Below are positions 1,729-61,591 of a stretch of DNA of 64,000 bases, piece by piece (positions within the stretch are counted from its first letter, which is position 1; each line of letters opens with the position of its first letter). The stretch is taken from positions 1 to 64,000 of IMG/VR virus record IMGVR_UViG_3300025018_000004. One strand, written 5' to 3'. The translations under genes and the position numbers were made by a program. A model generated the notes under the pieces. The model was not told the DNA's origin. It searched no databases and worked only from the letters and a program-made list of their open reading frames with translations. The DNA comes from a virus.

Positions 1729-1761
1729 GTTATTGAGTTGTCAAGGAATGCTTGACATCTG

Positions 1762-2125
1762 TGGACCTGGCGAGAGTCGAACTCGCGTCCAGATGTTGTT
1801 CAGTCAGAACTGACTACCATCCATTGATTAAGGTTCAATGGTAACCGAGGGACCGACCTAAGTCGACATCTCCACCACCTCATTCTTTAACGCGAGAATG
1901 AGGAAAAACGTCCTGTCTTTCCAGGCGTCGACGGATAATTGACACCAGCTGATCCCCTATCCGCGTCAGGGGCTGATGACTTCAGGCCGCTACCTTCTGG
2001 CTGCGGACGAAAGCGAGTGCATAATCGTTAGCACTTGTGGTTTCAACAGTTATTTTATAGGAGTCTGTTGACTCTCCCAGGTAGTGTTCATTCCGTTCTT
2101 CACCTGTCGAAACCGTGACAGGCCC
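1762..2125 (-). ncRNA. ssrA: tmRNA (SsrA), one-piece, about 364 nt
   Basis: 5' end GGGCCTGTCACGGTTTCGACAGGTG and 3' end GGACGCGAGTTCGACTCTCGCCAGGTCCA mirror, as I recall them, E. coli GGGGCUGAUUCUGGAUUCGACGGG and GGACGCGGGUUCAACUCCCGCCAGCUCCACCA. The acceptor GGGCCTG/CAGGTCC contains G3-U70. The internal tag ORF GCT AAC GAT TAT GCA CTC GCT TTC GTC CGC AGC CAG AAG GTA GCG GCC TGA encodes ANDYALAFVRSQKVAA*. Confidence 0.85.
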
Positions 2126-40489: not shown

Positions 40490-40920
40490 TGACTCCATCC
40501 TATATCATTATCCACACTGCGGGAGCAAAGATCGCCGCAAGTATCGAAGATGTCAATCGCTGGCACAAAAAGCGTGGTTTCCGAAGAAAAGGAACCCACG
40601 ATTTGCAGTATATAGGATACCAGTACTATATCCGCAGAGACGGTACTGTTCAGCGTGGACGTGATGAGACAGAGGTAGGAGCCCAATGTAAAGATATGGG
40701 AATGAATAGGAAGTCTATTGGCATATGTTTTGAAGGACATGGAGACTTCGAGGAGTTCACCAAGGCTCAGCGTAAAAGCCTCAACCTCCTGTACCAGCAG
40801 ATAGATGCACGGTGGGGCATCCCTGTTGAAAACGTTCTTGGTCACCGGGAAACAGGAGCCAAAAAGACCTGTCCTGGTACCAAGGTCGACATGCATGAAT
40901 TGAGGAGCTCGCTATCATGA
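40486..40920 (+). CDS. N-acetylmuramoyl-L-alanine amidase (T7 lysozyme / PGRP type)
   Basis: ORF track 40228..40920, trimmed to ATG 40486 (ATGA overlap with the upstream stop). 144 aa. The Zn ligand pattern is IIHTAG (His), LGHRE (His), CPG (Cys). Size and order match T7 gp3.5-type amidases. Confidence 0.88.
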   Translation: MMTPSYIIIHTAGAKIAASIEDVNRWHKKRGFRRKGTHDLQYIGYQYYIRRDGTVQRGRDETEVGAQCKDMGMNRKSIGICFEGHGDFEEFTKAQRKSLNLLYQQIDARWGIPVENVLGHRETGAKKTCPGTKVDMHELRSSLS

Positions 40921-43900: not shown

Positions 43901-45836
43901 AGGAGGTTTCACCTGGCCATACTACCAGAATAATCCTGGCGTATCCAAGATTCTTCTTGAGTTGGATAGTGATCTCCATGGCGCTGGTGAATCCAGTGTT
44001 TTGACGGTTTCTGGAGGGAGCGGGGTTCTTTCAGTTAGCATTGAAGGAATCGATTATACTGAAGCCTTTGATACAGATGCGGACACTACTGCTGCAAATT
44101 GGGTGGCTACTCACGCAGCTACCCTGGCCGCTCTCACTCCATCAATTACTGCAACGGATACAGGCGTAGCAGAAATTACATTGGCGTCTTCATCAGACAT
44201 CTTGCTGAGTGACACGGGAACTGGAGCAATGGGTTTCACCATTTCAACAGGCCATGATTCCCAATCCAATCACTTGGTCAATCTCTGTTCCTTCAAATTG
44301 GATGTGTACAACAGCTTTACTGAACAGTCTCTGGTATGGACAGGATACTTCCAGGCAACTGTCGCCGCTGAAAATGAGCCGTTTGATAGCACTACTGCTT
44401 GGCATGCTGCCAACGAGACTTCTGAGATTTATGGTGGAGACACCTACATCTCAAAGTACACGTTCAAAGAGCACATGGATGAGGGATCATCTGTATTGAC
44501 CACCTATTCCCATGACATCGTATGTGAGTCGGATGACAACATTGGATTCCGTCATGAGGGACCTCTTGAGTGGGAGATCTATTATCCGAAGAGCTCACGC
44601 GCCTTGTTCTTGAATCCAGGAACCTATCCAGATGGGGGAGATCAGTACGACGTTGACAATCCGTATTATTACAACGAGGAGTACAATGATCTCCAGGACT
44701 GGAAAGTGTCCTTCCCATACGATGGTACTGATCCAGATCCTACCAGCTATCCAACAAGGGTAATTCGGTCTGGAGCTTCAACTGGAACCAATCAAGATCA
44801 CTTCAGACGATTCTTGGTTGATGATTATCTGGATTTCCCGCGCCAGCGAGGAGAACTTGTCCACCTTGCAAACATGGGATCTGTGATCATTGCTCACATG
44901 AAGCGAGGTCTGTACAGAACTCGTGGAAAAGAGGAGCTGAATTTCAGTGATATCCGAGCCTTTATTGGTTCCGGAGACATTTTCTCTGTCCAGCCGACAG
45001 AAATAGGATCCACTGAGATTGGACTTGGTGGCTTGCAGGACCAGCGTGCAGCTGTTGTGACTGCAAACGGCTACTATTGGATTGACAAGTTGGCCAAACG
45101 TGTTTACATGATATCTGGAGAAGGTATTAGGGACGTCACTGGTGGCTTGACCAATTGGATGGAAGACAATCTGGACAGTCTTGGAATCCTCCACCTTGTT
45201 GAGGACATGGCCGAAGAGCGTTTGATAATCACTGGGTACGGTGGGGCCACTGAGGAAACGCTTTCTCTTGACCTGGCGACAAATACCTGGACGTCTTTCC
45301 ACTCCTATTCTCCCCACTGGTACCTGCCATCATCGAATAACCTCCATTCTATAACTGGATCAACCATTTATCAACACCATACTGGAGACTACGGAAACTT
45401 CTATGGGGTTGAATATGACAGCTTCATCGAGTTCATTGAGAATGATCCCCCTGGAAAGCAGAAACAGGTAGCGTATCTGTTGATGGAAACGGTGGCTGAT
45501 GACAATGGAGTTGAGGACATTACAACTACCTTCTCTTCGTACAGAATCACTAACTCCTACCAGGATACTGGAACAGTTCCTGTTGATACCACTGTCTCAT
45601 TCTCGAGTGCTCAGGGAAACACTAGACGTCACAGAGGCTTCTGGAGAATGAATGTCGGGAGAGATACTCTCAACATTCCGTCTACCTCTGAGCTTCGTAG
45701 ATATGGCACCACCCAGGCGTATCAGAAGAGGCTTATCGATAAATGGCACAAGGTCAGGCTCACAATGGATAATTCGGCCAACCTTTTGCTGTATATCTTT
45801 CATGCACAGCTAATAAGCAGGCAATCCAAGCGATAA
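40917..45836 (+). CDS. giant structural protein (1639 aa) with at least two clear and two diverged copies of the shared module
   Basis: ATGA overlap with the amidase gene. The ORF is uninterrupted. Module copies lie at about 41151-41403 and 43998-44247, with weaker copies at about 42475-42640 and 42830-43005. Confidence 0.85.
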   Translation: MRFAGGINQDQHESRQPEGTYRDARNVILDDERGALKTEAGTIDIVGITTNYAVVGSTLMSDGRTAILSRYVAPFTYNLTVSQPSPGVNDILYLTINGVGYATPDNGSISATIDDWIADQGGELAVLDSPITAARTATNVLTLYCSSALTIVDGSTGFSFSQVAIGETISSQIGVFNGTSYNLILSDTGFSSSNKLEFGPFCEMTSRINHKDEYLIYWTDDVNPPRYLNIDLETGVERGLDTFTLFPTVEKHPYFQFNGLVAGGSLGTGSYHIALAYVNADGTQTGWIFVSHPIYVNDETNESFPDTYDGAENDYPTNRAISFSLTEVDENYSHIRIALIDGSDVRVMPDRVISLDNGVMTTTVTGNEAFTDGTLEEIVIPTAYYTKAKTLRQVDDRLYLGNVETLDKEFDYQKYANNISVEAVTDVFNVTGGLGYKDNEFSFTNKSFRRDEVYALYMSWVLKDGSETKAFHIPGRGSLGTNAGLSSGYVQFQTAAPTSISAASVIMTAKQDWIASVPSVHTIVVSGATALGVDVVDATYNVPIAAGMTGADVINEYISSMIDTAGITFKNNIQFANDPDDDYQMIITNRTGNNEDWNGVTFSVTASPKDGYTSNAYATTIALAGGEDDEGQPFTTSTIDFYGQTVNHVVSGGESKATIASNLVTALTGNVTINADYDIAVDGGDSSKVNIVAKVTGTPPEQFNSPLILDYRDVPKPFSVTAFGVGGGNEFYAANETELLTDLAADPANEPYIGRITQAFGIPGGAYDTAKLFHFSGAADAETGMGYWENANEDYPSTEDWDIWEVVAGSGQDTGRTLQGQKVRHHRFPDNYSNTVFDGTDTDPNARALGFKLTNVQIPNDLAAEVIGFKVYYAKRTDNNKTILDQGEFIYAGLDISTPASEFWFSQNKASDPAVTNAYDGNVGAVHPFNLLRNYPNINLGNLDYIKSQANIDDSLIDSSRVGLGSYIPAAQPRVRSVAAKTYIAEGTVQTDLSGGGFTWPYYQNNPGVSKILLELDSDLHGAGESSVLTVSGGSGVLSVSIEGIDYTEAFDTDADTTAANWVATHAATLAALTPSITATDTGVAEITLASSSDILLSDTGTGAMGFTISTGHDSQSNHLVNLCSFKLDVYNSFTEQSLVWTGYFQATVAAENEPFDSTTAWHAANETSEIYGGDTYISKYTFKEHMDEGSSVLTTYSHDIVCESDDNIGFRHEGPLEWEIYYPKSSRALFLNPGTYPDGGDQYDVDNPYYYNEEYNDLQDWKVSFPYDGTDPDPTSYPTRVIRSGASTGTNQDHFRRFLVDDYLDFPRQRGELVHLANMGSVIIAHMKRGLYRTRGKEELNFSDIRAFIGSGDIFSVQPTEIGSTEIGLGGLQDQRAAVVTANGYYWIDKLAKRVYMISGEGIRDVTGGLTNWMEDNLDSLGILHLVEDMAEERLIITGYGGATEETLSLDLATNTWTSFHSYSPHWYLPSSNNLHSITGSTIYQHHTGDYGNFYGVEYDSFIEFIENDPPGKQKQVAYLLMETVADDNGVEDITTTFSSYRITNSYQDTGTVPVDTTVSFSSAQGNTRRHRGFWRMNVGRDTLNIPSTSELRRYGTTQAYQKRLIDKWHKVRLTMDNSANLLLYIFHAQLISRQSKR

Positions 45837-47592: not shown

Positions 47593-49724
47593 TGGCTATC
47601 ACACCTTTTTCAACACCGGCTCAGCAGCAGTTCATTCCCTTGCAGGACTATACTCCTGTGGGGATGATTGGTAATGTGATCAACAAACTTGATGCTCGTC
47701 AAGCAGAAGGCCTTGCTGCGGCTGACAAGATGGATTTGCTTCGAGCAGAACTATCAAGACAAGTTCTTCCAGAACAGCAGCAGTTTGCTGACGATACTCT
47801 ACAGAGCGTTGGTGCTGAATTGGCCGCTCTTGCGGAAAGCGGAGACTATATCGATGCTCTTCCTAAGCTTCGTCGTCTCAGTACAGGTCTTGTGGAAAAG
47901 ATGTCTCCTCTGACTGAGAACTATGCTGCCGTCCAGGCTCGCAAGAAAGCAATCCAGGATGAGCTCCTCAAACGACCAGAAGCCTTTACCCCCAATGATA
48001 TTGAGTACTTTTTGAACGCTCCTCAGCGAGCTCTGTCTGCGGATCCAAATGCTCAATTCTCAGCCCCAATTCTTACTACTCGAGTTGATAGAAACAAGCT
48101 GCTGAATGACTTCTTCAAGGACATGGAACCAGATCAAGAGGTCTCCTTCATCAATTCCAATGGAATGGAAGTTAAGAAGACAGTTAAGGAGTTGACTCGG
48201 GAAGACATTCGTCAAGCCGGCATGTCTCTTTTGAAGGCAAATACTGGAGTTCTATCTGAACTTGATAGGGACTATCAGGCAGCAAAGCAGCGTCTTGGAC
48301 CAGGTGCTGCAGAACAATTTGCATGGTCAAAGTGGATGGAGATTGATGATCGTAAAAAGGCAATTGAGTCAGATCCCAATCTATCAGAAGATCAGAAGCA
48401 ACAGATTGTCGACAGTCTTAATGAGGCACAGGATAATCTTGATGCAAATCCAGAGAACTTCTTTCGTCAGTCCTTTGAGCAAGATGTTCTTGGGGCTGAT
48501 GTAAGTCCGTATGAAAACAGGGCTTACACTCAGACTTCTGTGACAACCAAGGCCAATCCTTATGATCTTGCTCGATTCAACAGCATGCTGCGACAGAGTG
48601 AGCAGATGCAGAGGGAGGCAAGGCAGGCTGCTCGGGATCAGAAGAATAGTAGCGATCTTCTCTACTGGAACGGAACCCTGACTCCAACACCATTTCCTGT
48701 TCCCCCATCTACGAATGTCTCTTCTATGATTGAGCAGGCAGATCAAACTGTTGCTGAGCTGCAGGAGCGGATGCAAACTCCTGGGCTACCGCCACAGGAT
48801 TACATGGTTATGCAGCAGCAGATTGATGATATTCAGACCAGGATCTCTACCGTAAAGCACCTTAGAGACAAGGCTGCAACTGAACTTGGTATCGATCCAG
48901 AAGCCATGGCTATCATTGAATCAGCTAAGCCACAGGTGCCGACGTCTGTCACTCCTCAGAGAATCGAAGAGCTTCAGAGGTGGGCGAAGAGTGGTTCAGG
49001 CGGTGAGGCAGGATCTCAGATGGTTCGTCGGATGAATGATGAAGAGCTTCAATACTACCAGGACTATCGTGACTGGTATGGAGGCCTGAACTCTGCAGCC
49101 AAGGATCAGAACAAAGCCATTGACAAGTGGATGAAGGACGCTTTCGATAATCGAGGTTCTGAGTCTGCAATGGTTGCCCCTATTACCGGAGACAAGAAGA
49201 TCCAATTGACGGCCATGATCAACGATATCGTTGGTCTTCGGTACTTTGAAGGCACTCCTGAAGATGGAAAGGAAATTGAACTTGGAGTTGATGGAAAAGA
49301 GCGTCCTGATATCACTGATTTGAGCAGTGTCACAACTGTTCCAGTGGGTCTCCCAGATGGAACGATGGCATATCGTCTCCAGGGTAGAGACAAAGATGGA
49401 AAGGCCTATACCATGGTGGCCTCTGACAACGAGAGTCTTCGTAACTGGCTTGGTAGGGTTGAAGTAGAAGGAAAGGCAGTCAACACAACAGCAAGCGGAA
49501 GATTGCTCAATGGGCTTGGAGACGGCATGTTTCTTGATCCAATCATTGGCGGACAGAATATTCTTGGCTCTGGAGGTAGCATCCAGCGCAAGGGTAATTC
49601 GTTCATCATCAAGCTTGAAGACGACACAGGCAATATTGTAACTGAGCGTGCATCCCTTGATGAACTAGTCCAATTGATGGAATCAGCAAGAGCGTCCTCT
49701 TATCAACCCCAAGCAAATGAGTGA
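47592..49724 (+). CDS. virion-internal protein candidate (710 aa)
   Basis: The start overlaps the upstream stop (TAATG). The ORF is uninterrupted. No motif recognised. Confidence 0.8.
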   Translation: MAITPFSTPAQQQFIPLQDYTPVGMIGNVINKLDARQAEGLAAADKMDLLRAELSRQVLPEQQQFADDTLQSVGAELAALAESGDYIDALPKLRRLSTGLVEKMSPLTENYAAVQARKKAIQDELLKRPEAFTPNDIEYFLNAPQRALSADPNAQFSAPILTTRVDRNKLLNDFFKDMEPDQEVSFINSNGMEVKKTVKELTREDIRQAGMSLLKANTGVLSELDRDYQAAKQRLGPGAAEQFAWSKWMEIDDRKKAIESDPNLSEDQKQQIVDSLNEAQDNLDANPENFFRQSFEQDVLGADVSPYENRAYTQTSVTTKANPYDLARFNSMLRQSEQMQREARQAARDQKNSSDLLYWNGTLTPTPFPVPPSTNVSSMIEQADQTVAELQERMQTPGLPPQDYMVMQQQIDDIQTRISTVKHLRDKAATELGIDPEAMAIIESAKPQVPTSVTPQRIEELQRWAKSGSGGEAGSQMVRRMNDEELQYYQDYRDWYGGLNSAAKDQNKAIDKWMKDAFDNRGSESAMVAPITGDKKIQLTAMINDIVGLRYFEGTPEDGKEIELGVDGKERPDITDLSSVTTVPVGLPDGTMAYRLQGRDKDGKAYTMVASDNESLRNWLGRVEVEGKAVNTTASGRLLNGLGDGMFLDPIIGGQNILGSGGSIQRKGNSFIIKLEDDTGNIVTERASLDELVQLMESARASSYQPQANE

Positions 49725-52700
49725 TCTTTCAAATCTGAACAGCATGCCTGTTCAAACTGATGCCACAGGAGAGGGTCCTGGTGGAACACCTCCGTCTCCA
49801 CTAGACAAGCTCAAGGCCATCAGAGGCATCAATCTAGGATCAACCCCACCCGTACCTGCTGACACAGTTCAGACAGACACCAGCCCACTTGGGCGGCTTC
49901 GTCAGGCGCAGGGAAATCCATATCAGATTGGTACCAATCGTGGCAAACTCTTCTCTAGCGCAAACGTCAGTGAGTATGCTCCATATATGCTTGGCATTGA
50001 TCCAAATCAGAATCTTGATGAGATCAGAGCACAGAACCAGTCTAATTTTGAACAGCTCGGGCATGCAATTGTAAGGACCCCTTTCCGTGCAGCTTTAGGA
50101 ATTGCAGAAGGAGCTGGATATCTCCTTGATTTTGAAGCCGTGGGCAAGACTCTTGCTTTGGGCGCTCTTGGTCAACCGGAGTATCACAACTGGTTGAGCG
50201 ATATTGCAAAGACTGGAAAAGAGAACATTTCTGAAGCTCTTCCTATCTACAGAGAACAGGCGCAAAAAGTCTGGAATCCAGGGGATGCCGCATGGTGGAT
50301 TGACAATGGTGCTGGTCTGGTTGAATCAATCGGATCTTTCTTCGTTGTTGGTGCCGGCCTGGCCGCAGGAACATCCAAGATTGCATCTGGCGTAGCTAGT
50401 TTGGCCAATATGATGGCCAAAGGGACGCAGATTGCTCGTGGAGCAGCTCAGGTTGCTACCGCAGGCGGTTTGGCATATGTGGAAGGAGCCATGGAAGGCG
50501 TTGAAGTGTATGATCAGGTATACCGCTTAGGTGTTGAACAGGGTCTTCCAGAGGCCATAGCAAAACAGCATGCTTCTGATGCTGCTGCAAACACTGTCAA
50601 GATCAACACCTTTGTAAACACTGGTCTCAACATGACTGGTGCCATGGCTTTCTTTCGTCCAATGCGCAGCCAAGGAGCCATAACAAAGGCCGGATTGGGC
50701 ATGAATGCTGGAGAAAGCATGTCCGCATATTTGACCAGACTCAAGGATACTCCTGCAAAGGGATTCATGAGTACGCTGCTTGCTGAAAGCGCACGCGAAG
50801 CTCCTCAAGAGGCGCTTGAAGAGGTAGTCAACGAGATCTCAAGTGCGGAAGGTTTGTTTAAGGGAAACGCTCTACTTGGGGTAGAAGATGGAAGAAATAT
50901 CGCTGAACGAGTGGTTGATGTTCTTCTCACTCCAGAAGCGGCCCTTGCGGCAACTCTTGGTGCCGTTGGGGGTGCAGGACAGGCTTTGGTTACTGGTCTT
51001 GCACCATCGCTGACACTCAAAGAGGGTGACGGTGTCAAGAATGCAGCCGTTTATAAGAAGCTTCAGACTCGAGGCTCTCGTGAGCATGCTGCCATCATGG
51101 AAGCACAGACTCAGACCAGGACTCGGCTGATCAAGTTGGTTGAGAATCATATCGATGCTCGTAACCGCATGCAAAAAGCATCGGAAGAGGGCAATATTGA
51201 AGAATACCGGAAAGCAAAGGATGATCTTTTTGATGTGATCACTGAGGATCGGATTGTCACTGGTATGGAAGAGCAGCTTATTGCTGGCTTCGAAGCTGTC
51301 AGAGATATGACTCCGGAAGAAGCCCAGGATGCTGGATTCGACGCAGATCCTGACAGCGACGAGTATTACAAGAAGCTTGCTGATGACCGAATTAGAAAGA
51401 GCAAGAAGCTCACCAAGCGCTGGAATGAGATCCAGGACACGTACAATTTCGACAGTGACGAGCATCTCTCGCGTCTGCCGTATTTCATCTTTGGATCTGA
51501 GGTCCAGATTGAATCTTTGAACGATCAGCTCTCCAGGGTCAGAGATGCCAAGCAGAAGCTATCAGCTGATCAACAAGCACAGTCGATGTTTCTTGATACA
51601 GATGTCACGTTTGACTCTCTTCTTCAGCTTGATGAGCAGAGAGCTGCTTTAGACAAGCAAAAGAAGACGCTTGCCACAAAGATCAAGTCAACTCAGGAGC
51701 TGATGAAGACCGATAGTGGTCGTGCAAGGCTCCAGAAGATGTATGATACGTACGACATGGACTCCATCATTTTGGGATTGAATGATGCAGTTGCTGCTAT
51801 TGGACGCCGGGAGACTGACATAGGCCGTCAAGTCGAACAGATCTCAGACTCCATCAAGGAATCTGATGGAATGGATGCATATAACGACTGGCTCAACAAG
51901 AACATCGCATACAAGGAGGCCCTGGAAGAGATCAGCAATATAGAGGCTGGTGCTCAGACTGAACTGGCTGAGATTCAGACGTCTTTGAATAACGTTCTGT
52001 CTCAGAGAGGAAGGAGAAACTTCTCAAAGGCCTTCAATAATGAGCTGACTAGACTCCAGGATATTCAAAAAGAAGCCATCAAGGAAGAAATCAAGCAGGC
52101 TCAGACTCGTGAGGAGCTGACTCAAATCTCTAACCAAATTGATCCTGATCAAACTCCTGAAATCTCAGATGAACTCGAGAGAAAGAACGCTGAGCTGAAT
52201 AGATTGGAGGACGACAAGGCTAGGAAGGCTGAAAAAGAAATTCTTGATCAGAAGGGTAGGGAAATGGACGCTCAGCTTGAACTTGAGGCTAAGTTGAACA
52301 TAAATCAGGAAGTTCCTATTACGCAGCGTCGTGACTTCGAAGACCTCACTGAGAGAAACAATCTTCTTGAGTTCATGCTTGAGATAGATGATCGTCAAGA
52401 GTTGGATGAGGCATTTTTGCACTTCTCCAAGTTGTATAACCTGGATGATGATTTCCAGCGTGTCATCTTTGAACGTCAGAGCCAACTGTCATTCAGTAAT
52501 AAGAGACAGGACAGAGACGATTCTCTTGACGTGTCTGATTCAGCCACTGCTCCAGATGAGCCCACGACAAATCGATATCGTTCTATGGAGGAAATGGATG
52601 ACAGTCTAGACGCAAGTCAGGAGGGGCGGGAGGAGACCTCTTCTTCAGGGAAAACTCAGTCTGTTGGACTCAAGATTGTAGAAGCGTCTCTTGCTCTCGC

Positions 52701-54342
52701 TCATCTCACAAAGGACTATTCTGTTGTAGTAGACAAGGAGACCGGAGAACAGATCAAGGTAGAAGCCGGTGAGGCTTTGAGCGAAAATCTCATTCCGGAA
52801 ACTCTTTCTTGGAAAGATCTCCAGGAAGGGGACGATGTTATATTTGAGCTGGATACCAACTTTGTTCATCCTGAAACTGGAGTCACATATGACGAATTGT
52901 CTGAGGGCCCAGATGCATGGAAGAATGTACCCATTCGCGTTGTCTACAAAGGAAAGCCTGTTGGCTGGATTCATACGGTTGATTGGGTAGATGCCAACCA
53001 GAACGGGAATCCTACGAATGTAGCTCATTACGTAAATCAACGTAACAACTGGGAAGATCAAAAGCAGCGCATCCGTGACCTTCGCAAGCGCATCTGGAAA
53101 AGTGAATCCATGTCCGCTGTGGTCAGCCACCATGGTATTGGCCATCTGAACCATTCTCTGGCTCGTAATGAGGAGGGGAATATCGAGAGAGACAGTAGAG
53201 GAAACGCAATCAAGGAGCGTCGTTCTGTGGCAGAGAACACAGGCGACAATATCCGTTTTGTCGTATCCAAGAATGGACAGTTCTTTGATGGTAGAGACCC
53301 GGTCAAAAAAGAATTGGCCAACAAAGAGGTTTTCCCAACTGGTCAGCCAGGCATCCTTCTCCCGACCAGCGCACGGAGAGATGGCAAACAAGTGTGGATG
53401 GCTGTGCCCATTTGGATCCCTACTGCCAAAGATGCTGATTCTCAGCTTCCAAGCGACATTTTCAATATTATTCGAGCCTTTCACCGGCCAAGCAATGCTG
53501 CGGAAGTAGAGCAGCTCTCATCCGCATTGGATACTCAATTCGGATCCAATGTTGATTTCCTCTCTGATTACATCGGCAACTTCTTCTTATCCAGAAGCTT
53601 CAGTAACTCTGATATCAACAACCCGACAGTGAGCTCTAAGAGAGTGTTCATACACGTCGGAACTGATACTGGAGATCTCAGAATTGCCAAGCATGGCGCT
53701 TCCCCTGGAGGTGGTATCGTATACACTACTAATCAGACACACGCCAGGAAGTATGACAATGCTCGGTATATGTTTGAACTAGCTCCGGATGGCTCCTATC
53801 TACATCAGGAAGCCATTGAGTCTCTGATTGGAGATGCTTTCCTTGACCTCAAAATTGAAAAGGCTAACGGCCAGTCAACAATCAATCGTGTCACGCTCGT
53901 CGATGGGGCATGGGAAGCGAGACCAACCTCCTACAAGGAGTTTATGCGTAACTCGTTTTCAACAACTGTCAATGGACAGACTCTTCCGAATGGAGAGATG
54001 ACGTACTTTGTACAGCCCAACATTATCTTTTCTGAAGGGTCGCAGAAACCAGAGATTGTCGAAAGAGAAGCCCCAAGTGAAAACGCACCCCTTGAAAGAT
54101 TGGATGCAGAAGAAGGTGATCCCGCAGTGCCTGGCCCAGAAGTTGCTAATGACCTGGATAAGTTTTTGCTTACCGACGAAGAGTATAACCCCAACATCAA
54201 AGGAACTACTTTCAGCAAAGGTGAGGCCGAGGCCGCAAGGTCAGACAGCCCTTTCTTCAGCTATCCTTCTGCGGCAGAGAGAGATATCAAGGCTAATGAC
54301 CTGGAATCTGATGGTGACGTTCAAGTGACTTGCAAGGTATAA
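49717..54342 (+). CDS. giant virion-internal (ejected) protein candidate (1541 aa)
   Basis: Gly/Ala-rich hydrophobic N-terminal region (GAGLVESIGSFFVVGAGLAAGTSKIASGVASLANMMAKG...), followed by about 500 aa of charged coiled-coil-like sequence. Confidence 0.85.
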   Translation: MSDLSNLNSMPVQTDATGEGPGGTPPSPLDKLKAIRGINLGSTPPVPADTVQTDTSPLGRLRQAQGNPYQIGTNRGKLFSSANVSEYAPYMLGIDPNQNLDEIRAQNQSNFEQLGHAIVRTPFRAALGIAEGAGYLLDFEAVGKTLALGALGQPEYHNWLSDIAKTGKENISEALPIYREQAQKVWNPGDAAWWIDNGAGLVESIGSFFVVGAGLAAGTSKIASGVASLANMMAKGTQIARGAAQVATAGGLAYVEGAMEGVEVYDQVYRLGVEQGLPEAIAKQHASDAAANTVKINTFVNTGLNMTGAMAFFRPMRSQGAITKAGLGMNAGESMSAYLTRLKDTPAKGFMSTLLAESAREAPQEALEEVVNEISSAEGLFKGNALLGVEDGRNIAERVVDVLLTPEAALAATLGAVGGAGQALVTGLAPSLTLKEGDGVKNAAVYKKLQTRGSREHAAIMEAQTQTRTRLIKLVENHIDARNRMQKASEEGNIEEYRKAKDDLFDVITEDRIVTGMEEQLIAGFEAVRDMTPEEAQDAGFDADPDSDEYYKKLADDRIRKSKKLTKRWNEIQDTYNFDSDEHLSRLPYFIFGSEVQIESLNDQLSRVRDAKQKLSADQQAQSMFLDTDVTFDSLLQLDEQRAALDKQKKTLATKIKSTQELMKTDSGRARLQKMYDTYDMDSIILGLNDAVAAIGRRETDIGRQVEQISDSIKESDGMDAYNDWLNKNIAYKEALEEISNIEAGAQTELAEIQTSLNNVLSQRGRRNFSKAFNNELTRLQDIQKEAIKEEIKQAQTREELTQISNQIDPDQTPEISDELERKNAELNRLEDDKARKAEKEILDQKGREMDAQLELEAKLNINQEVPITQRRDFEDLTERNNLLEFMLEIDDRQELDEAFLHFSKLYNLDDDFQRVIFERQSQLSFSNKRQDRDDSLDVSDSATAPDEPTTNRYRSMEEMDDSLDASQEGREETSSSGKTQSVGLKIVEASLALAHLTKDYSVVVDKETGEQIKVEAGEALSENLIPETLSWKDLQEGDDVIFELDTNFVHPETGVTYDELSEGPDAWKNVPIRVVYKGKPVGWIHTVDWVDANQNGNPTNVAHYVNQRNNWEDQKQRIRDLRKRIWKSESMSAVVSHHGIGHLNHSLARNEEGNIERDSRGNAIKERRSVAENTGDNIRFVVSKNGQFFDGRDPVKKELANKEVFPTGQPGILLPTSARRDGKQVWMAVPIWIPTAKDADSQLPSDIFNIIRAFHRPSNAAEVEQLSSALDTQFGSNVDFLSDYIGNFFLSRSFSNSDINNPTVSSKRVFIHVGTDTGDLRIAKHGASPGGGIVYTTNQTHARKYDNARYMFELAPDGSYLHQEAIESLIGDAFLDLKIEKANGQSTINRVTLVDGAWEARPTSYKEFMRNSFSTTVNGQTLPNGEMTYFVQPNIIFSEGSQKPEIVEREAPSENAPLERLDAEEGDPAVPGPEVANDLDKFLLTDEEYNPNIKGTTFSKGEAEAARSDSPFFSYPSAAERDIKANDLESDGDVQVTCKV

Positions 54343-54343
54343 C

Positions 54344-57300
54344 ATGGCAAAGTGCATCAATGGAATTGGAAGCATTGAGTTTGAAAGTGCTGCTGAACGT
54401 AATCGATTTGACGTATATCTACAGTCATACGCCAATGACGTAGATAAAGCATATGAAGCCTATCTGGCTGAAAAGATAGAGCGGGATGCGTTCCTAGCGG
54501 ATGAGTTGTCCAAATACACTCTCCCTGGATTCACTCCGTCCCAGCAGCAGCAAGTGCTTAGCGGTCTAACCTTCAATCTTGGTCAGGCCATTCTTGATTC
54601 CACGGATGATCCAAATGCAACGAATGCTGTAAATCAGCTGTTTTCGAATGAGTTCTATGCTCTCCGTCTTCAGTTGACAGATGCGCATAAGCGCGGAGAC
54701 GTTGTCCTGGCCAATGAGTATCTCAAGGTTCTCCAGAACTGGGATGCTATCAAAGGGATGATCGTCTCAAATCTCAAGACGCTTGGTATCAACATTAAAG
54801 GAGCATCTGAAACCGCAGAAGAAGCCACGTCAGCTGACGAGTATTCAGATTCCCTTTCAGATGCTCTGTTTGATGCCATGGCCTCTGAGCTAGGAGTCGA
54901 TGGTGATTTTGTTGTTGAAGGAGAAGATTCCAACTATGAGCGGACAAAGTGGGAAGATGATGCTATTTTCCAGATCCAGGCAAAAGATCGGGCGTCTTCA
55001 CGTCTCCGTATGTTCATGGGGCGGGTACCGGAGGTGGAGCGGAGCATGAGTGGAGATCTGGTGGTCCGTCGTGGCTACCTGGGACTCACCAGATACATTC
55101 CGTTTGATACACTTTGGGAGAACACCACCTCCTTCCTTGCCGGGAGAGATCCTGATTTTGATCTTTTCCTTTCAGAGATGCAGAACAGTGGAAATGTGTC
55201 TTTGAAGCATCTGGCTACAATGCTGTCACAAGCAGATGAGCGGATAAAGTCCGAGTTCATGACCTCCATGTCCAAGTTCTATGTAGACATGATGCTGGTT
55301 ACATGGTCTCCTGAGTATACCAGCGGGACTGTGACAAGCTTCAGTACTCGTCTGATGCGCAGCAACAGGAACTCTGTTGCAGATACTGTCCTGTCTTCCT
55401 GGATCACGAATCAGAAAACGTCTCCTCTTGTCACATTTGTAGACGGAGAGATGATGATTGACTCAGTTCGAGTCAGAGAGATCCATGATTCCTATGCGAA
55501 TATGTGGAAAGCCGTCCAGGGAAAGGAGATGAACGAAGACAAGTTGGATCTTGTCCAGAACACGCTTGCATCTCTTGGCATCACGATGACCAAAGAGCAG
55601 GTTGGAACTCTGCAGCAGAAATCAAAGAAGATCTTCAACGGATCCTTTGATTACATGTTTGATCCACACGAGCCAAAGTCCTTTGTTTCTATCCTATTTG
55701 ATGGCTTCACGCCAAGGATGGCAACTGGAGAAGAGAGCTTGTTTGCACTGGCCAATCCTTTGATGGGGAATGCTGGTGGCCGTATCAAGAAGCTTGCTGA
55801 GTTTGTAGGAACAGAGTCTGATCAGCTGATGACTCCTTCTTACCGTGATGTGGAGAGAAAGGTGGTTCATCCATATCAGGATCATCATCTATTGTCAAAC
55901 ACAATTCGCAAGTTGCGAAGTGACGAGGAGCACATTCAGCAGCTGGTCATGGCTCCTTTCTCCTCCAGATCATTGTGGGCAGCACGCCTTCTGGAAAGTG
56001 AGGCAGATCGCAGCCTCTTGAACATGACGTATATCGACGGTATGCGCAAGCAGGGATCTCGTAGACCCCAGAAGCGCTCTAATATGTCAAAGGCTGAGCA
56101 GCATCTGTATGCAGTAACTCTTTTCCAGAATGCTCAGTTCAAGAGTGTCGGAAAGAGTGATGTTATGGCATCGTTCATCGTGCCAACCATGTCTGACAAA
56201 AGTGTTTCTCCAATCATCTCGTTTGTCAAGCAGAACGTCGACGTCTCAATTAAAGATGGAGAAGTCACTAGCTTCTCGAAGAATACCGTTGATCTCATCA
56301 TGAATGGCGTTCTTGCTGAAGCCACTCGGATCCAACACTTCCAGGACAAACTGGAAGGTAACATGGGTGAGAACTTCAAAGCCTATCAGGATGGGGCGAA
56401 AAACTTCTATCTGCATCCATGGCTGAACAAGGACGTCATGACAGACGAGGATGCGGCCATTGTCTGGGGAAAGAATGGATCTTTGCTCTTGACAACTGAG
56501 GCAGTTGGTGTGATGAGACGTCTCACAGTCAAGGCATATATTCAGAAGATCTCTGATCTACAGAAGCTCTGGAGAGACATTGGTCTTGTATCAGAAGAGA
56601 ATGGCAAACCCACACCAATGATGAGCCTTCCGCACCTGAACACCATTGGACCAAAAGACATGCCTGGCAAGATTGCAGCGGCTGCTGCTGATTTTACAAT
56701 CAATTACGCTGTCTTCTACTCCGAGTACTTCATGCTGATTGCTGGAGACCCTGCTCAGCATTTCAAAAAAGATGTTGAACAGACTCTGGACAACCTCCAG
56801 AAGCGTCTGGCCAAAGACATTGCTCCTACTTTGAAAGGTAAGTGGGCAGAGAAGGCTACTTTCCGCAAGGTCACTATTGGAGATCGCGTTGTCGATTCCA
56901 AGAACCGCGCCATGTACAGGAGGCGTCTTGGAGAGGACCTGTATGGTGATATCGAGTCCACTGATGCCCAGGAGTACACTACCCTGGAGGAACACATCAA
57001 TGTGATGCGAGCCTACGGTAAGATTGCTGAGCCGATCTACAAGTCGATCATGACGAAGATCAGGTCCAATCGAGGTGGATACTTCGAGCTATCTGATGAT
57101 GAGCGCGGGGTTATCCTGCAGCCAATGAAGCCTCTTACGGTGAACATGCGGCATTTAGATTACATCGAGGTCGATGGTAACCAGGTTCCGATCCACATGA
57201 ACACTTTGACGTACACCAAGTCGTCGTCATTCCCGCTTGTTCCAGAATTGACACGGGGTCTTGAAATTGACAAGCTTCGTGTAGCCATGGAAAAGGGCGG

Positions 57301-60300
57301 TATTGATAGAGCTGCTCATGTGAGTGCAGACAAGCTTGGAATCAAGACAACGAAGAACATTTATACGGGAGACGGGAAGATTCAGGACAGCATCGAATTT
57401 GATGACTATCAGGAAATTCCCAGAGAAGGATTTGGTCTACAGCAGGAGATGCCAGTCAAGAAGCTGGAGATTTCTACTGTCTCTCAGATGAACAAGTTGT
57501 TGTTTGACGGGATCAGAGAACTCAAAGGGTTCCGTTTCAATGGGAATGACTATTCCGGCGCTCAGCTTGAAAGCCTGAAGGAAGACATTCGGGAACGTCT
57601 CTTTGATGCTGGCTCAGCCGCTCTGAGAGACGAGCTTGGTCTTGTCCCCAATGGAGACGGGTCCTATCGGTTTGAGAACCTGGACAAGGTCCGTGAAGTC
57701 CTCATGCGTGAGGCCAAGGCCAGAGGATGGTCCAAATCAGACATTGAGAGTCTCGAGTTGACTGAGGATGGGTCCTCTTTCATCGTGCCTCTTGCATTCT
57801 CCCATGCATCACCGAGAATTGAGTCTCTTCTCCTCTCGATGATGAAGAAGATCGTTTCTCATCCGAAGGTGTTTGGGAAAGGGTTTGTTCAGGCTTCATC
57901 TGCCGGCTTCGAAGCAGTTGGTGGAGAACAGAATATTGTCTGGGTTGGAGACTATGATCCTTCAAAGGGCCTCAGTCATATGACTTGGGACAAGAACAAG
58001 GTCAAGCCTGCTCAGATCATTATCCCATGGTATTTCAGGGGAACAGATCTCAGAGACTATGTCGGAAATGATGGTCGCCTGGATCTCAGTCTGATTGACC
58101 CAGACGTCTTGAAGATGATTGGGGCTCGTATTCCGAACCAGGGACACAGCTCCATGGCTGCGTTTGAGATTGTTGGGTTTGTCGATCCAGCCTACTACTC
58201 ACTGGCCATCGTACCAGATGAGATTGTCACCCAGATGGGATCTGACTTTGACATCGATAAACTGTATGGCTACCTCACTCAGTATCAGATTGAGCCAGAA
58301 GACACTGGGAAGATCAGAAAGCTTCCTCTGGTAAAGAATCCAGATGAGAAGATGACAACTTCTCAGCTGAAGCAGGTCTATGCTGACATTCACTGGTCGG
58401 TTCTCACACATCCAGATGTGGCTGAAAGAGTCATGTCTCCTCTGGAACGTCCTGATCTCAAGAAGGAGAAGGAGCTTATTCGGGAAGCCAAGGGAGAGTC
58501 TGAGCTTCGAGCTCCTATTTTCTTTGACACACAGATTGATGACCATATCAAGAACCGTTCTGGTAAAGAGCTGATCGCCAAGTTCTCTCTGTACTCGACG
58601 GCACAGTCTGTTCTGCAGCCATATAATGTTCGTTTCTCACGAGACAAGGCTGGATTCAGCAAGTCTGATGCCTTCAAGTTTGACGGAAAGCTTTTTGATA
58701 GGCTCTCAGGTACGGGAGAGACGACGTATGATGGTGATCGCAGAACCAAGGCTCAGAACATTGCGTCTCTTCAGTCGGCTGCTGTAGACAACGCAAAAGA
58801 GAACGTCCTGGGTTTCTTGAACCTCAATCAGACCACGGCTCCGATTGCAGGTCTGATGGCTATGCTAGAGACACAGGACGGAGAGGCATTGAACCTGGCG
58901 TACATTGCCCGTTTTCTTTCTCAGCCAGTAGTGTCCATGGTAGTGGGCAGAATTGAGCAGTACCGCTCATCAATGAGGACAACCTTTGTTGCAGATCCGG
59001 TTGAGACTGCGATATCTGATACGTTTGATGAGCTGTTTGGGAAGGAAGAAGACATCGTAGGTGATTTGACCACGTACAAAGGCTCTTTCTCTGCCGGCCA
59101 GCTTCTCAATATGATTGAGGACTGGGCAAATTATGAGTCTCTGTCCAAGAAGCAGAAGACTGATCTGATATCAAAGCAGCTGAAGGCTCTTGAACTATTC
59201 AGAAGTTTGCAGGATGGAGCTGCCACATTTGATAGATTCCGCAGGGCCCTTCTGTTTGCAGATAGCAACGGGTCTGGCAAGTCTGTCCCTGAGATGAATG
59301 ATCAGTGGGCAGAAGCAGCTGATATTCAGTCCCTTGGGTTTGATTTTGATTCTACTTTGTTGGAATCAGAGTATTTCAAGGTTGCTGAGCATACACTTCA
59401 GATGGGATCTGCCTATTTCAATCAGCTGTTTGGATACTCCAGCGTCTTCTTCAGGTACTCTCGGAACCAGTTGGATAGTGGTTTGGGTCTCGAGTTGAAT
59501 GCAGAAGACCAGCAGCGCTTCATGAACTCCATCCGGAGCTTTCTCTACACTCAGACAGCTGTTTTTGGCAACAACAATGAAGAACTCAAGAGACTGACGA
59601 TTGGAGATGACTCTTTGGCTCATCGTGTCAACAGAGCAAAGGATACTAAATGGGGATCCAGGAATTACTTCTTGCAGAGACTCCAACCAAACATTTCTGA
59701 ATCCATCAAAACGCCAAACTTCGTGGAGTATATGAGTAGTAAAGCTGCTCGACTTGACGAAGAAGAGATCCTCCGGAGCTGGGCTAGCATGCTGATCTCT
59801 CCAGATATCTCACAGCGAAAGCTGGCGACTGACCTGGTTGCCTACTCCTACCTGAGCGGAGGTAGATTTGGACCAACGAGCTTCTCACAGCACGTTCCCA
59901 TGGCCTATTTGGTCAATATTGGGTTCGATGAGGCGCTCCGTAACATATCTCTGAATGATCCTGTGTTATCTGAGCGATTTGTTACACAGTATCTGCAGCA
60001 CAACCCGACGTTGACTCCAAACATCAGAGGCAACAAAAAGCTCATTTCGAAGATCACCCGTGCAACAACGGTTCTGATCCATCCTGATGAGCAGGGTATT
60101 GATGAGCTCCGAGTTGGGGATTCCCTGGCCATGGCTTTCCATGTTGGAAAGGCTGGTGGAGCCGCATCTCTGTGGCTCAATCGCGGTGAGCAAGCTGATG
60201 GAAGCGTGCTCTTTGAGAAAGTGGATCTCCTCGGGAAGACAAACTTCTACGAGTATGATGGGACCACAAGTACTGCAAAAACCATCTTTCCAGATCAGAG

Positions 60301-61591
60301 AGTCCGGACTCCTGAAAACAACAAGAGAATAGTTTCTACTCGAAAGGAAGAGCACAACTCCAATACGGATAGAAGTGAGTCACAAGGTCAGCCTGTTTCT
60401 GGGTTTACTGATCAGGTTCAAAGCATGGTTTCCATAGAATACCCGTCAATGACTGGTATTCAAAGGGCTCAGTACGCACTGGACAACGTCTCAGATACCA
60501 AGGCAAAGGGCATCGTTCCTATTCTGAGGGCTGCAGTCGAGTCTCTCGGATCCGGATTCTCATTTGAATTCGATGACGCGAGTGATGGTCGCTGGGATGC
60601 CGGTATGTATGACCCAGCTGATAATGCGGTGTCCATCTTCCATAACAATGTGTACAGCAAGGCTGAGGCTGAAACAGTAGTTATCCACGAGCTTCTGCAT
60701 GCTGTGACTCTCGAGCGTCTCCAGAACACGGATGATCCAATTGTCCAGAGACTGGTGTCCATCAGATCGAAGCTCTCCAATCACATCAAGAATGGTGCAG
60801 ACGGCAAGGCATATAAGGACTTCCTTGATGTGATGTCTCAGCCAATTGAGTCACGACGTCTTCTGACACAACAGGAGATTGATAGATTCTATCCTCTCAC
60901 GAATGTTGAGGAGTTTGTGGTAGCTCTGTTTGAGAACCCAGAATTCGTCAACTATGTGAAAGACTTCAAAACAGAAGGGGAAGGTGGTAAGACTGTTCTG
61001 GAGAACATCATTGCCGCATTGAGCAACTTGATCAGTAGGATCGCCAAGGAGTTTGGAGTCGATATCCCAGCTGATTCTACTGTCCGTGAGGCCATGGAGG
61101 CTGCTCTGCAGATCTTCCCAAATGACATTACACCTACCCGTCGTGATACTCAGGTTCCAGACAACAAAGACACGTTCCAGTATTATGGGGCTCGTTACAC
61201 TATTCTCCTCAAAAGAGATAGTCATTCAGAAGAGCTCTATCCTTATGCGGTAGAAGGATATAAAGGAAAGACGAGTCAGATGTTCAAGTTGCTTGAAGCG
61301 TATGAGGCTGATCCAGATGTCGATCCACAGAACGGAAAGAAATTCAGGAATCTCGAGACCGTAGAGGAAGAAGTAGACAATCCAAGAAGCGGTCAGGAGG
61401 ATATTGAACCTGAAGGAGCTCCTACATCAAAGGCGGAAGCTGAGATTTTGAGGAATGAAAGCCCCTTCCTTTCCCCCGCTACCCGTGATTTCGGCACAAC
61501 TGTTGACCAAGTCATGAAGAACATGACCAAGGAACAGAGAGATCTGTTCCGTAATTTGCGCAGAGAAGGTCTCATTAGAACCAAGTGTTGA
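54344..61591 (+). CDS. giant protein (2415 aa): two-barrel (DPBB) RNA polymerase-like core with a C-terminal HExxH metallopeptidase-like domain
   Basis: ARIPNQGHSSMAAFEIVGF...MGSDFDIDKLYGY (DFDID = nt 58244-58258, aa 1301-1305) parallels the beta-prime [17 protein letters not shown]...NADFDGDQM segment. HVSADKLGIKT (aa ~993-1003) recalls the beta GDK..GRHGNKG barrel. HELLH lies at nt 60686-60700, with EEFVVALFE about 70 aa downstream. Confidence 0.6.
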   Translation: MAKCINGIGSIEFESAAERNRFDVYLQSYANDVDKAYEAYLAEKIERDAFLADELSKYTLPGFTPSQQQQVLSGLTFNLGQAILDSTDDPNATNAVNQLFSNEFYALRLQLTDAHKRGDVVLANEYLKVLQNWDAIKGMIVSNLKTLGINIKGASETAEEATSADEYSDSLSDALFDAMASELGVDGDFVVEGEDSNYERTKWEDDAIFQIQAKDRASSRLRMFMGRVPEVERSMSGDLVVRRGYLGLTRYIPFDTLWENTTSFLAGRDPDFDLFLSEMQNSGNVSLKHLATMLSQADERIKSEFMTSMSKFYVDMMLVTWSPEYTSGTVTSFSTRLMRSNRNSVADTVLSSWITNQKTSPLVTFVDGEMMIDSVRVREIHDSYANMWKAVQGKEMNEDKLDLVQNTLASLGITMTKEQVGTLQQKSKKIFNGSFDYMFDPHEPKSFVSILFDGFTPRMATGEESLFALANPLMGNAGGRIKKLAEFVGTESDQLMTPSYRDVERKVVHPYQDHHLLSNTIRKLRSDEEHIQQLVMAPFSSRSLWAARLLESEADRSLLNMTYIDGMRKQGSRRPQKRSNMSKAEQHLYAVTLFQNAQFKSVGKSDVMASFIVPTMSDKSVSPIISFVKQNVDVSIKDGEVTSFSKNTVDLIMNGVLAEATRIQHFQDKLEGNMGENFKAYQDGAKNFYLHPWLNKDVMTDEDAAIVWGKNGSLLLTTEAVGVMRRLTVKAYIQKISDLQKLWRDIGLVSEENGKPTPMMSLPHLNTIGPKDMPGKIAAAAADFTINYAVFYSEYFMLIAGDPAQHFKKDVEQTLDNLQKRLAKDIAPTLKGKWAEKATFRKVTIGDRVVDSKNRAMYRRRLGEDLYGDIESTDAQEYTTLEEHINVMRAYGKIAEPIYKSIMTKIRSNRGGYFELSDDERGVILQPMKPLTVNMRHLDYIEVDGNQVPIHMNTLTYTKSSSFPLVPELTRGLEIDKLRVAMEKGGIDRAAHVSADKLGIKTTKNIYTGDGKIQDSIEFDDYQEIPREGFGLQQEMPVKKLEISTVSQMNKLLFDGIRELKGFRFNGNDYSGAQLESLKEDIRERLFDAGSAALRDELGLVPNGDGSYRFENLDKVREVLMREAKARGWSKSDIESLELTEDGSSFIVPLAFSHASPRIESLLLSMMKKIVSHPKVFGKGFVQASSAGFEAVGGEQNIVWVGDYDPSKGLSHMTWDKNKVKPAQIIIPWYFRGTDLRDYVGNDGRLDLSLIDPDVLKMIGARIPNQGHSSMAAFEIVGFVDPAYYSLAIVPDEIVTQMGSDFDIDKLYGYLTQYQIEPEDTGKIRKLPLVKNPDEKMTTSQLKQVYADIHWSVLTHPDVAERVMSPLERPDLKKEKELIREAKGESELRAPIFFDTQIDDHIKNRSGKELIAKFSLYSTAQSVLQPYNVRFSRDKAGFSKSDAFKFDGKLFDRLSGTGETTYDGDRRTKAQNIASLQSAAVDNAKENVLGFLNLNQTTAPIAGLMAMLETQDGEALNLAYIARFLSQPVVSMVVGRIEQYRSSMRTTFVADPVETAISDTFDELFGKEEDIVGDLTTYKGSFSAGQLLNMIEDWANYESLSKKQKTDLISKQLKALELFRSLQDGAATFDRFRRALLFADSNGSGKSVPEMNDQWAEAADIQSLGFDFDSTLLESEYFKVAEHTLQMGSAYFNQLFGYSSVFFRYSRNQLDSGLGLELNAEDQQRFMNSIRSFLYTQTAVFGNNNEELKRLTIGDDSLAHRVNRAKDTKWGSRNYFLQRLQPNISESIKTPNFVEYMSSKAARLDEEEILRSWASMLISPDISQRKLATDLVAYSYLSGGRFGPTSFSQHVPMAYLVNIGFDEALRNISLNDPVLSERFVTQYLQHNPTLTPNIRGNKKLISKITRATTVLIHPDEQGIDELRVGDSLAMAFHVGKAGGAASLWLNRGEQADGSVLFEKVDLLGKTNFYEYDGTTSTAKTIFPDQRVRTPENNKRIVSTRKEEHNSNTDRSESQGQPVSGFTDQVQSMVSIEYPSMTGIQRAQYALDNVSDTKAKGIVPILRAAVESLGSGFSFEFDDASDGRWDAGMYDPADNAVSIFHNNVYSKAEAETVVIHELLHAVTLERLQNTDDPIVQRLVSIRSKLSNHIKNGADGKAYKDFLDVMSQPIESRRLLTQQEIDRFYPLTNVEEFVVALFENPEFVNYVKDFKTEGEGGKTVLENIIAALSNLISRIAKEFGVDIPADSTVREAMEAALQIFPNDITPTRRDTQVPDNKDTFQYYGARYTILLKRDSHSEELYPYAVEGYKGKTSQMFKLLEAYEADPDVDPQNGKKFRNLETVEEEVDNPRSGQEDIEPEGAPTSKAEAEILRNESPFLSPATRDFGTTVDQVMKNMTKEQRDLFRNLRREGLIRTKC

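Follow-up and report, generated by a model that had tools for sequence, protein, structure and literature searches.

The 2415-codon open reading frame (ORF) analyzed here lies on the + strand of a 64,000-nucleotide stretch of viral DNA (IMG/VR record IMGVR_UViG_3300025018_000004, positions 1 to 64,000; hereafter the window), taken from the beginning of a metagenomic contig that is 88,220 bp long. As judged from sequence comparison and modelling, its product is very probably a virion-packaged, DNA-dependent, single-chain RNA polymerase (RNAP) of the two-barrel type, encoded by a divergent crAss-like phage, with a zincin-like metallopeptidase (MPTase) domain further along the chain. The lineage is environmental and has a GC content of 47%. 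The two cysteines of this protein, one at each end, are part of a family-wide pattern that matters more than the virion RNA polymerase (vRNAP)-zincin gene itself. A preliminary description of the window had already pointed to this ORF, which is present as described, with every quoted string found.

The polymerase region

A phmmer search against all PDB chains returned a single strong match, chain A of 6VR4, which is gp66 of phage phi14:2 (E=8.2e-33, aa 656-1323). This protein is packaged in the virion and transcribes the early genes. In the alignment, the RIPNQG.SS and GSDFDIDK motifs of the two proteins pair residue for residue, a similarity well outside what chance would give. We also modelled aa 880-1620 with AlphaFold2 (AF2), using 32 homologues as input. 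The model has a mean predicted local distance difference test score (pLDDT) of 81 and a predicted template modelling score (pTM) of 0.77, and Foldseek superimposed it on 6VR4 over 835 columns with E=3.1e-25, a probability of 1.00 and a template modelling score for the query (TMq) of 0.73. The next Foldseek matches, with E values from 4e-3 up and individually not significant, were all other two-barrel RNAPs, namely P23-45-type phage RNAPs, plant Pol IV, the non-virion RNAPs (nvRNAPs) of phiKZ and AR9, and mycobacterial beta-prime. As to PHROGs, the ORF is assigned to phrog_16227, annotated 'virion structural protein' (1e-56).

The conservation of individual residues was judged in alignments of 33-35 homologues, in which K997, R1262, I1263, P1264, S1270, D1301, D1303, D1305 and K1306 are invariant. 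Their equivalents in gp66 are K1065 for K997, R1322 and P1324 for R1262 and P1264, S1330 for S1270, D1361, D1363 and D1365 for the three aspartates, and K1366 for K1306. We place K997 in the first, beta-like barrel because it lies just ahead of the gp66 Connector (residues 1095-1238). The DFDID motif occupies aa 1301-1305 (nt 58244-58258) and follows the catalytic rule DFD[I/V]D, with an isoleucine instead of a glycine at position 4, the hallmark of crAss-like RNAPs. The elements of this region are as follows.

54344..61591, + strand: vRNAP-zincin ORF, 2415 codons, ATG start, coordinates including the stop codon (6VR4, E=8e-33; phrog_16227)
57116..57421, + strand: first double-psi beta-barrel (DPBB), beta-like, about aa 925-1026, placed by the gp66 alignment just before the Connector; K997 at nt 57332-57334
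57422..57877, + strand: Connector between the barrels, about aa 1027-1178, from the alignment with gp66 1095-1238 and a helical block in the AF2 model; boundaries approximate
57878..58303, + strand: second DPBB, beta-prime-like, about aa 1179-1320, from the invariant residues and the exact alignment to gp66 1322-1366
58127..58153 and 58244..58261, + strand: motifs of the second barrel, RIPNQGHSS and the catalytic DFDIDK, respectively
58523..58624, + strand: candidate bridge helix, aa 1394-1427, a long AF2 helix (model residues 515-548); putative assignment

The region of the candidate bridge helix aligns weakly with gp66 1470-1754, where the bridge helix and the trigger loop sit.

Altogether, the match to 6VR4 in sequence and in structure and the invariant catalytic residues support the earlier proposal of a two-barrel RNAP in one chain, of the type that crAss-like phages package in their virions. 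Some details of that proposal have to be corrected. The string GARIPNQGH...GSDFDIDKLYGY is indeed present, but it spans aa 1260-1310 and not up to 1311. An RxPxxH motif had been read there in the order and spacing of cellular beta-prime; R1262, P1264 and DFDID are conserved, but the segment reads RxPxxxH (R-I-P-N-Q-G-H) and H1268 is not conserved. Similarly, AAHVSADKLGIKTTKN (aa 990-1005, 311 aa upstream) had been compared with the lysine-bearing barrel of the beta subunit. Its K997 is invariant, whereas K1001 and K1005 of the stretch ADKLGIKTTKN are variable.

Phage lineage and synteny

By its sequence relationships the phage is crAss-like but remote from anything classified. The window encodes a crassvirus major capsid protein (MCP) and a crassvirus muzzle protein, together with tail ring proteins 1 and 2 (PF24228, 1e-44; PF25702, 2e-24). 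The large terminase subunit (TerL) is 38% identical to Suoliviridae TerL. For TerL and the MCP, the best of the matches listed and the organism tallies are crAss-like phages. The vRNAP ORF is found in the cargo ('transcription') block past the muzzle gene, where it is flanked by two other giant genes and starts 1 nt past the stop of a 1541-aa ORF.

23086..24498, + strand: crassvirus MCP (PF23898, 1.4e-89; 31-33% identical to Crassvirales MCPs)
40917..45836, + strand: crassvirus muzzle protein, crAss_MUZ (PF25731, 4.6e-45)
49717..54342, + strand: upstream cargo ORF, 1541 aa, counterpart of phi14:2 gp67 by position (synteny, cysteine positions)
61595..64000, continuing past the window edge, + strand: downstream cargo ORF, 1226 aa in the full contig, counterpart by position of the post-zincin part of phi14:2 gp65

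Read from the muzzle gene on, the block runs muzzle-583-710-1541-2415-1226, in the same order as in phi14:2 (g071...g067-g066-g065) and in a related metagenomic contig, L002. Nothing was retrieved when 24 kb were compared by megablast with 50,697 phage records, and among cultured phages the RNAP is matched best by that of FpV4 (Fipvunavirus), at 23% identity. With these values and the 38% identity of TerL, we found no close relationship to any named Crassvirales genus or family. It had been suggested that the phage would extend the enzyme family if it did not belong to a recognised crAss-like lineage. This condition fails since the phage itself is crAss-like, as indicated by its capsid protein (Crass_capsid, 1e-89), muzzle (crAss_MUZ, 5e-45) and ring proteins, and the enzyme family thus stays within the crAss-like phages.

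A mode of action can be proposed from phi14:2 and from crAss001, whose RNAP-associated proteins are cargo. The vRNAP would be packed in the capsid alongside its two large neighbours, extruded partly unfolded through the tail before the DNA, and then refold in the host cell, where it would transcribe the early genes. D1301, D1303 and D1305 would bind Mg2+.

The zincin-like domain

From sequence profiles and modelling, the C-terminal domain is predicted to be a zincin-like MPTase module of the kind found in phage ejected and polyvalent proteins, with an intact HExxH...E triad. As previously noticed, the ORF contains a HELLH motif, its sole HExxH, 814 aa downstream of DFDID, and an EEFVVALFE segment (aa 2189-2197) 74 aa after HELLH.

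60419..61195, + strand: zincin-like MPTase domain, aa 2026-2284, from the envelope of the hidden Markov model (HMM), the invariant residues, the AF2 model, and the matches of the PDB profile search and BFVD
60686..60700, + strand: HELLH, aa 2115-2119
60911..60916, + strand: E2190-F2191

Searching this domain required a profile, as a single-sequence tblastn with the C-terminal 515 aa gave only marginal matches (crAss-like cr55_1/cr1_1, E=2e-3; two Ralstonia phages, E=9e-3). When aa 2020-2330 were searched with HMMER against 1.84 billion representative proteins, 35 relatives were recovered, nearly all of them giants of 2,000-5,000 aa. In an alignment of 28 sequences with a mean identity of 18%, E2116, H2119, E2190 and F2191 are invariant, and the position of H2115 is a histidine in most homologues and a glutamate in some. 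The sequence profile matched PDB entries that are internal-virion or ejection proteins (9SFN_G, 7e-15; 8VB2_A, 2e-7; 23SG_S, 2e-5) and the minigluzincins projannalysin and selecase (1e-4 to 7e-4; 4JIX, 1e-4). It also matched residues 2223-2288 of the N4 vRNAP (2e-3), which fall in the HExxH-containing C1 domain of the N4 structure. The HMM detected phi14:2 gp65 as well (residues 182-342, 9e-22).

The core of the AF2 model has pLDDT values above 90 and comprises a helix (36-49), three strands (54-58, 68-71 and 76-80), the HExxH helix (87-107), inserted helices and a helix carrying the glutamate (169-178). This arrangement fits the zincin MPTase core, defined as an N-terminal helix, a three-stranded sheet and two C-terminal helices (Iyer et al. 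2017). Foldseek searches of BFVD with the model gave 16 matches at E<=1e-3, including polyvalent-protein domains, crAss-like proteins, internal virion proteins and an N4-like vRNAP.

The preliminary description had spoken of a gluzincin or M90-type peptidase. A zincin-like domain is well supported by the invariant E2116, H2119, E2190 and F2191 and by the minigluzincin (1e-4) and N4 (2e-3) matches, but membership of M90 or M76 is not. Peptidase_M76 scored 13.4-16.8 bits against a Pfam cut-off of 25.2, SprT-like stayed below threshold, and for M90 there was no Pfam match on the isolated domain even at E<=10.

Several results weigh against the assignment of the ORF as a whole. No Pfam family detects a polymerase when the whole ORF is searched. 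Foldseek found nothing significant in the PDB for the zincin model (best E=0.44), the minigluzincins being ranked first; the sequence profile and BFVD told more about this domain. In several homologues the first histidine of HExxH is replaced by a glutamate (EExxH), so that the predicted proteolytic activity is not guaranteed throughout the family. Finally, the 1541-aa ORF and the downstream ORF have no significant phmmer similarity to gp67, gp65 or FpV4 gp33. We call them positional counterparts only for this reason, and their equivalence to gp67 and to the remainder of gp65 would rest on position, size and cysteine pattern.

One would also wonder whether the ORF could be a structural cargo protein that keeps an RNAP-like fold without polymerizing RNA, early transcription being left to the host enzyme. 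Its identity to gp66 is just about 20-28%, and nowhere is the confidence of the AF2 model lower than in the catalytic loop (pLDDT <50, model residues 421-423). However, all the residues that are invariant in the family are kept, namely the three aspartates, K1306, R1262, P1264 and K997, and the catalytic loop of gp66 also adopts an unusual conformation, yet gp66 is active. We thus consider a dead polymerase very improbable.

As to the zincin domain, our best guess is that it could serve the processing or activation of cargo proteins, or else assembly and encapsidation as proposed for the equivalent region of the N4 vRNAP. A dedicated protease that matures the cargo or the polyprotein, or that activates the injected RNAP by removing an inhibitory part, is a tentative possibility to which we give clearly less than even chances. 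Such a processing role has been proposed for phi14:2 gp65 and for the polyprotein forms (Drobysheva et al.), as well as for the MPTase domains found in polyvalent proteins, where P1 DdrB sets a precedent (Iyer et al. 2017). It would agree with the intact catalytic triad of the window ORF and with the constant location of the domain between the RNAP part and the gp65-like part, even in single polyproteins of 4,700-5,600 aa. Nevertheless, the domain is kept equally where the three proteins are separate genes, as in the window and phi14:2, the N4 vRNAP is packaged unprocessed although it carries a homologous domain, and some homologues have EExxH. The domain could instead serve chiefly in structure, encapsidation or docking, perhaps as a pseudo-enzyme, or it could be an effector directed against the host envelope or host proteins. 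We hold this to be slightly less likely than the processing role. The N4 vRNAP region with the homologous domain is required for encapsidation, and in the N4 structure this domain is part of the C-terminal domain (CTD) that packs against the RNAP. Moreover, the relatives of known structure that match best are proteins found inside virions or ejected from them, and an effector or peptidoglycan-digesting role has been suggested in the literature. On the other hand, the strict conservation of E2116, H2119 and E2190 in very divergent sequences argues for a retained metal chemistry.

Terminal cysteines of the cargo proteins

The two cysteines of the vRNAP ORF are Cys4 and Cys2415, its last residue. 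The ORF on either side has a sole cysteine, located in both cases close to the junction with the vRNAP ORF.

54331..54333, + strand: codon of C1539, sole cysteine of the 1541-aa ORF, 2 residues from its end
54353..54355, + strand: codon of Cys4 of the vRNAP ORF, N-terminal partner site
61586..61588, + strand: codon of Cys2415 of the vRNAP ORF
61601..61603, + strand: codon of C3, sole cysteine of the downstream 1226-aa ORF

The layout is the same in the relative L002. In phi14:2, gp67 contains only C1797 (its last residue), gp66 only C3 and C2179, and gp65 only C3. In crAss001, gp47 contains only C2339, gp50 contains C5, C1334 and C2404, and gp49 only C5; the terminal cysteine of gp47 is kept even though this gene is on the strand opposite to gp50 and gp49.

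We surveyed about 85 crAss-like loci for these cysteines (L007-L086, L004, L001 and L087). The statistics on split and fused genes refer to 83 loci, which are 80 loci from IMG/VR, the window, phi14:2 and FpV4. The cysteine pairs mark each split between the three giant cargo genes and are missing from fused ones. Of the 27 RNAP ORFs that are unfused on the N side, 26 have a cysteine at position 3-5, versus 1 of the 43 that are fused upstream (Fisher p=6e-17). At the other end, 58 RNAP ORFs have a cysteine 0-4 residues from their end, and in every case (58/58) the next large ORF has a cysteine within its first 7 residues, with a small gene sometimes standing between the two. A second count gave 59 RNAP ORFs with a cysteine at this distance from the end. 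None of the 17 RNAP ORFs without a C-terminal cysteine has such a partner cysteine in the next ORF. Nine complete polyproteins of 4,730-5,639 aa contain no cysteine at all. Internal cysteines make up 0.014% of the residues of cargo ORFs versus 0.82% in the other ORFs of the same loci, a depletion of about 58-fold. The N terminus of the first cargo protein and the C terminus of the last one have no cysteine. One lineage (L044, L052, L060 and L076) has an extra split within the RNAP, which reads '...KKC[DE]*' before the break and 'MAC[EQ]YFV' after it.

This extra split is located about 270 aa before DFDID, at about 10.9-11.5 kb in each locus, and is made by a small cysteine-containing ORF (157-166 aa) that is possibly a mobile endonuclease. 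In phage N4 (L088), the ejected proteins gp50, gp51 and gp52 (3500, 644 and 150 aa) have no cysteine, and the N4 DNA polymerase has 12. Avoidance of cysteine may thus be general for ejected proteins that are threaded out of the capsid, and the retained terminal pairs stand out against it.

We propose that the three giant cargo proteins (gp67-like, vRNAP and gp65-like) could be joined head to tail in the particle through these terminal cysteines, most simply by disulfides, a proposal that we rate at about even chances from the sequence pattern. In the window, C1539 of the upstream 1541-aa ORF would pair with C4 of the RNAP, whose C2415 would in turn pair with C3 of the downstream ORF. The tethered cargo would then form a single threadable chain, equivalent to the polyprotein of other lineages. 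With such a tether the proteins would be ejected in a set order, and reduction in the host cytoplasm would then take the chain apart. The link could be covalent or metal-mediated; a disulfide would be most likely, since crAss001 particles contain disulfides in their tail.

A serious competitor, to which we give a little less than even chances, is that the terminal cysteines link nothing and have some other role at the free ends of the proteins, where they could for example bind a metal, carry a modification, or act as a signal for packaging or ejection. Disulfides are not normally formed in the cytoplasm, where the particles are assembled, and gut crassviruses inhabit an anaerobic habitat. Disulfides do occur, however, in crAss001 particles (in the tail), and several observations would be difficult to reconcile with unpaired residues. 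The cysteines flanking a junction come and go together across the survey, on the N side as well as on the C side, and a pair reappears at the lineage-specific split inside the RNAP. The pair is also kept in crAss001 in spite of the opposite orientation of gp47, the outer ends of the first and last proteins are free of cysteine, and internal cysteines are depleted.

Three further explanations were considered. A signal at the nucleotide level at the junction was rejected, given the variable distance of the cysteine from the end, the small intervening genes and the opposite strand of crAss001 gp47. Circularization of the RNAP through its own two cysteines is less likely because a one-sided fusion removes exactly the two cysteines at that junction. 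A 'cysteine switch' acting on the zincin Zn fails to explain the pairs. We found no mention of a cysteine tether in the Drobysheva preprint, in Bayfield 2023, in the N4 paper or among the other papers searched. Crassviruses have to bring about 5 MDa of cargo proteins, a polymerase included, into order, package them and eject them, and terminal cysteine pairs that track gene splits provide a concrete hypothesis for how this could be done.

Gene fusions and the C-terminal region

In the locus survey, the zincin was found in the RNAP ORF in 42 of the 83 loci, at a median of 828 aa past the motif, and in the next ORF in 3 of them; in 36 loci this HMM did not detect it. In crAss001 (L087), a HExxH motif (HEAFH) is present at aa 2157, near the C-terminal end of gp47, the first of the trio, and L010 also has a zincin match in the upstream ORF. 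Different lineages therefore carry the zincin at different points of the cargo chain. An RNAP-zincin fusion in one ORF is not unusual. The enzyme type is already known, and Drobysheva et al. had noted a zincin-like domain adjoining the RNAP (phi14:2 gp65); polyprotein fusions are known as well.

Past the zincin, the window ORF ends with three short segments.

61166..61309, + strand: small beta-rich domain, about aa 2275-2322 (AF2 strands 256-285, helix 291-303, pLDDT 62-71)
61358..61498, + strand: disordered linker, about aa 2339-2385 (pLDDT <50; the alignment with P0001 and P0002 breaks at about aa 2367)
61502..61588, + strand: conserved C-terminal helical tail ending with Cys2415, 65-68% identical to the tails of P0001 and P0002 beyond their helicase insert

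P0001 and P0002 (contigs L002/L007; 62% and 56% identical) are the closest metagenomic relatives of the window ORF. They are colinear with it over aa 1-2367 and over the last ~50 aa, with the same neighbours and the same terminal cysteines. They differ from it by a superfamily 1 (SF1) helicase module (PIF1/RecD-like) of ~480-690 aa, inserted in the disordered linker before the tail. An in-frame SF1 helicase (PIF1, AAA_30, UvrD_C_2) follows the zincin in 11 of the 83 loci and is not present in the window ORF. The helicase-bearing sequences are L002 10001-19291 (P0002), P0001, and L007, L011, L024, L030, L035, L036, L043, L048, L050, L060 and L076 from IMG/VR. A single metagenome sample (ENA ERZ27293386; k141_502123 is the window and k141_579436 is L002) contains two related crAss-like phages whose RNAPs are 56% identical and of which only one has the helicase. 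In the literature searched, we found no description of a packaged helicase fused to an injected polymerase.

The boundary between the polymerase and zincin genes is thus fluid, as the zincin is found at the start of the next gene, at the end of the RNAP gene or ahead of a helicase. This is useful for annotation and unsurprising. The window ORF itself adds a divergent environmental lineage to the family of crAss-like virion RNAPs.

Other features of the window

The window also contains a transfer-messenger RNA, two transfer RNAs (tRNAs) and, among its virion genes, a cupin and a pair of similar ORFs. The latter are adjacent, encode about 510-550 aa and have similar C-termini, ...GEIVKVTYTFSVSV and ...GEIVKATYIFRVNL; from this resemblance, a tail or fibre protein has probably been duplicated in tandem here.

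1759..2125, - strand: tmRNA (Rfam RF00023, 78 bits), tag ANDYALAFVRSQKVAA
1584..1657, - strand: tRNA-Arg(tct)
8768..8844, - strand: second tRNA, with an irregular anticodon loop
28323..28838, + strand: ORF with a Cupin_1 domain (E=2e-7), within the virion gene module
37302..38957 and 38957..40489, + strand: the two adjacent similar ORFs

Comparison with known systems

A parallel can be drawn with QDE-1 and the RNAi polymerases, with YonO and with the multisubunit beta/beta-prime enzymes, all of which share with the window ORF the core of two DPBBs, the DxDxD Mg site and the lysine of the first barrel. They are nevertheless distant. The window ORF has an isoleucine and not a glycine at motif position 4, and we do not claim membership of these groups. 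The authors of the gp66 structure found gp66 structurally closest to QDE-1. QDE-1 was not among the 50 Foldseek matches listed for our model, and cellular RNAPs appeared there with E>=0.08.

Another comparison concerns N4 gp50, also a giant polymerase that is ejected and that has a homologous zincin-like domain with HExxH (C1, residues 2124-2375) after its polymerase part. Its polymerase is, however, of the T7-like single-subunit type and unrelated to the two-barrel RNAPs. Like the crAss cargo proteins, which are nearly or entirely without internal cysteines, gp50 has none in 3500 aa, but it lacks the terminal cysteines of the window ORF.

The best match from a cultured phage is gp32 of Flavobacterium phage FpV4, a 4287-aa 'virion structural protein' with 23% identity over 82% of the query. 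In this protein, as in the crAss-like polyproteins of 3,600-5,600 aa from IMG/VR, the zincin is found ~800-950 aa past the RNAP motif in one polypeptide, as in the window ORF. Unlike the latter, they have a gp67-like part fused on the N side and, in some cases, a gp65-like part too, and the fused junctions are free of cysteine.

The closest characterized system is phi14:2 gp66 (6VR4). Both DPBBs, the connector and the following helical region are homologous, GSDFDIDK, RIPNQG.SS and the lysine of the first barrel are identical, and both proteins are encoded between a gp67-like and a gp65-like gene and have cysteines only at position 3-4 and at the C-terminal end. The two proteins are divergent, at about 20-28% identity, and the window protein is 235 aa longer because it includes the zincin domain. 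In phi14:2 this domain opens the next gene (gp65, with HEIMH at aa 245), whereas in the window it closes the RNAP ORF.

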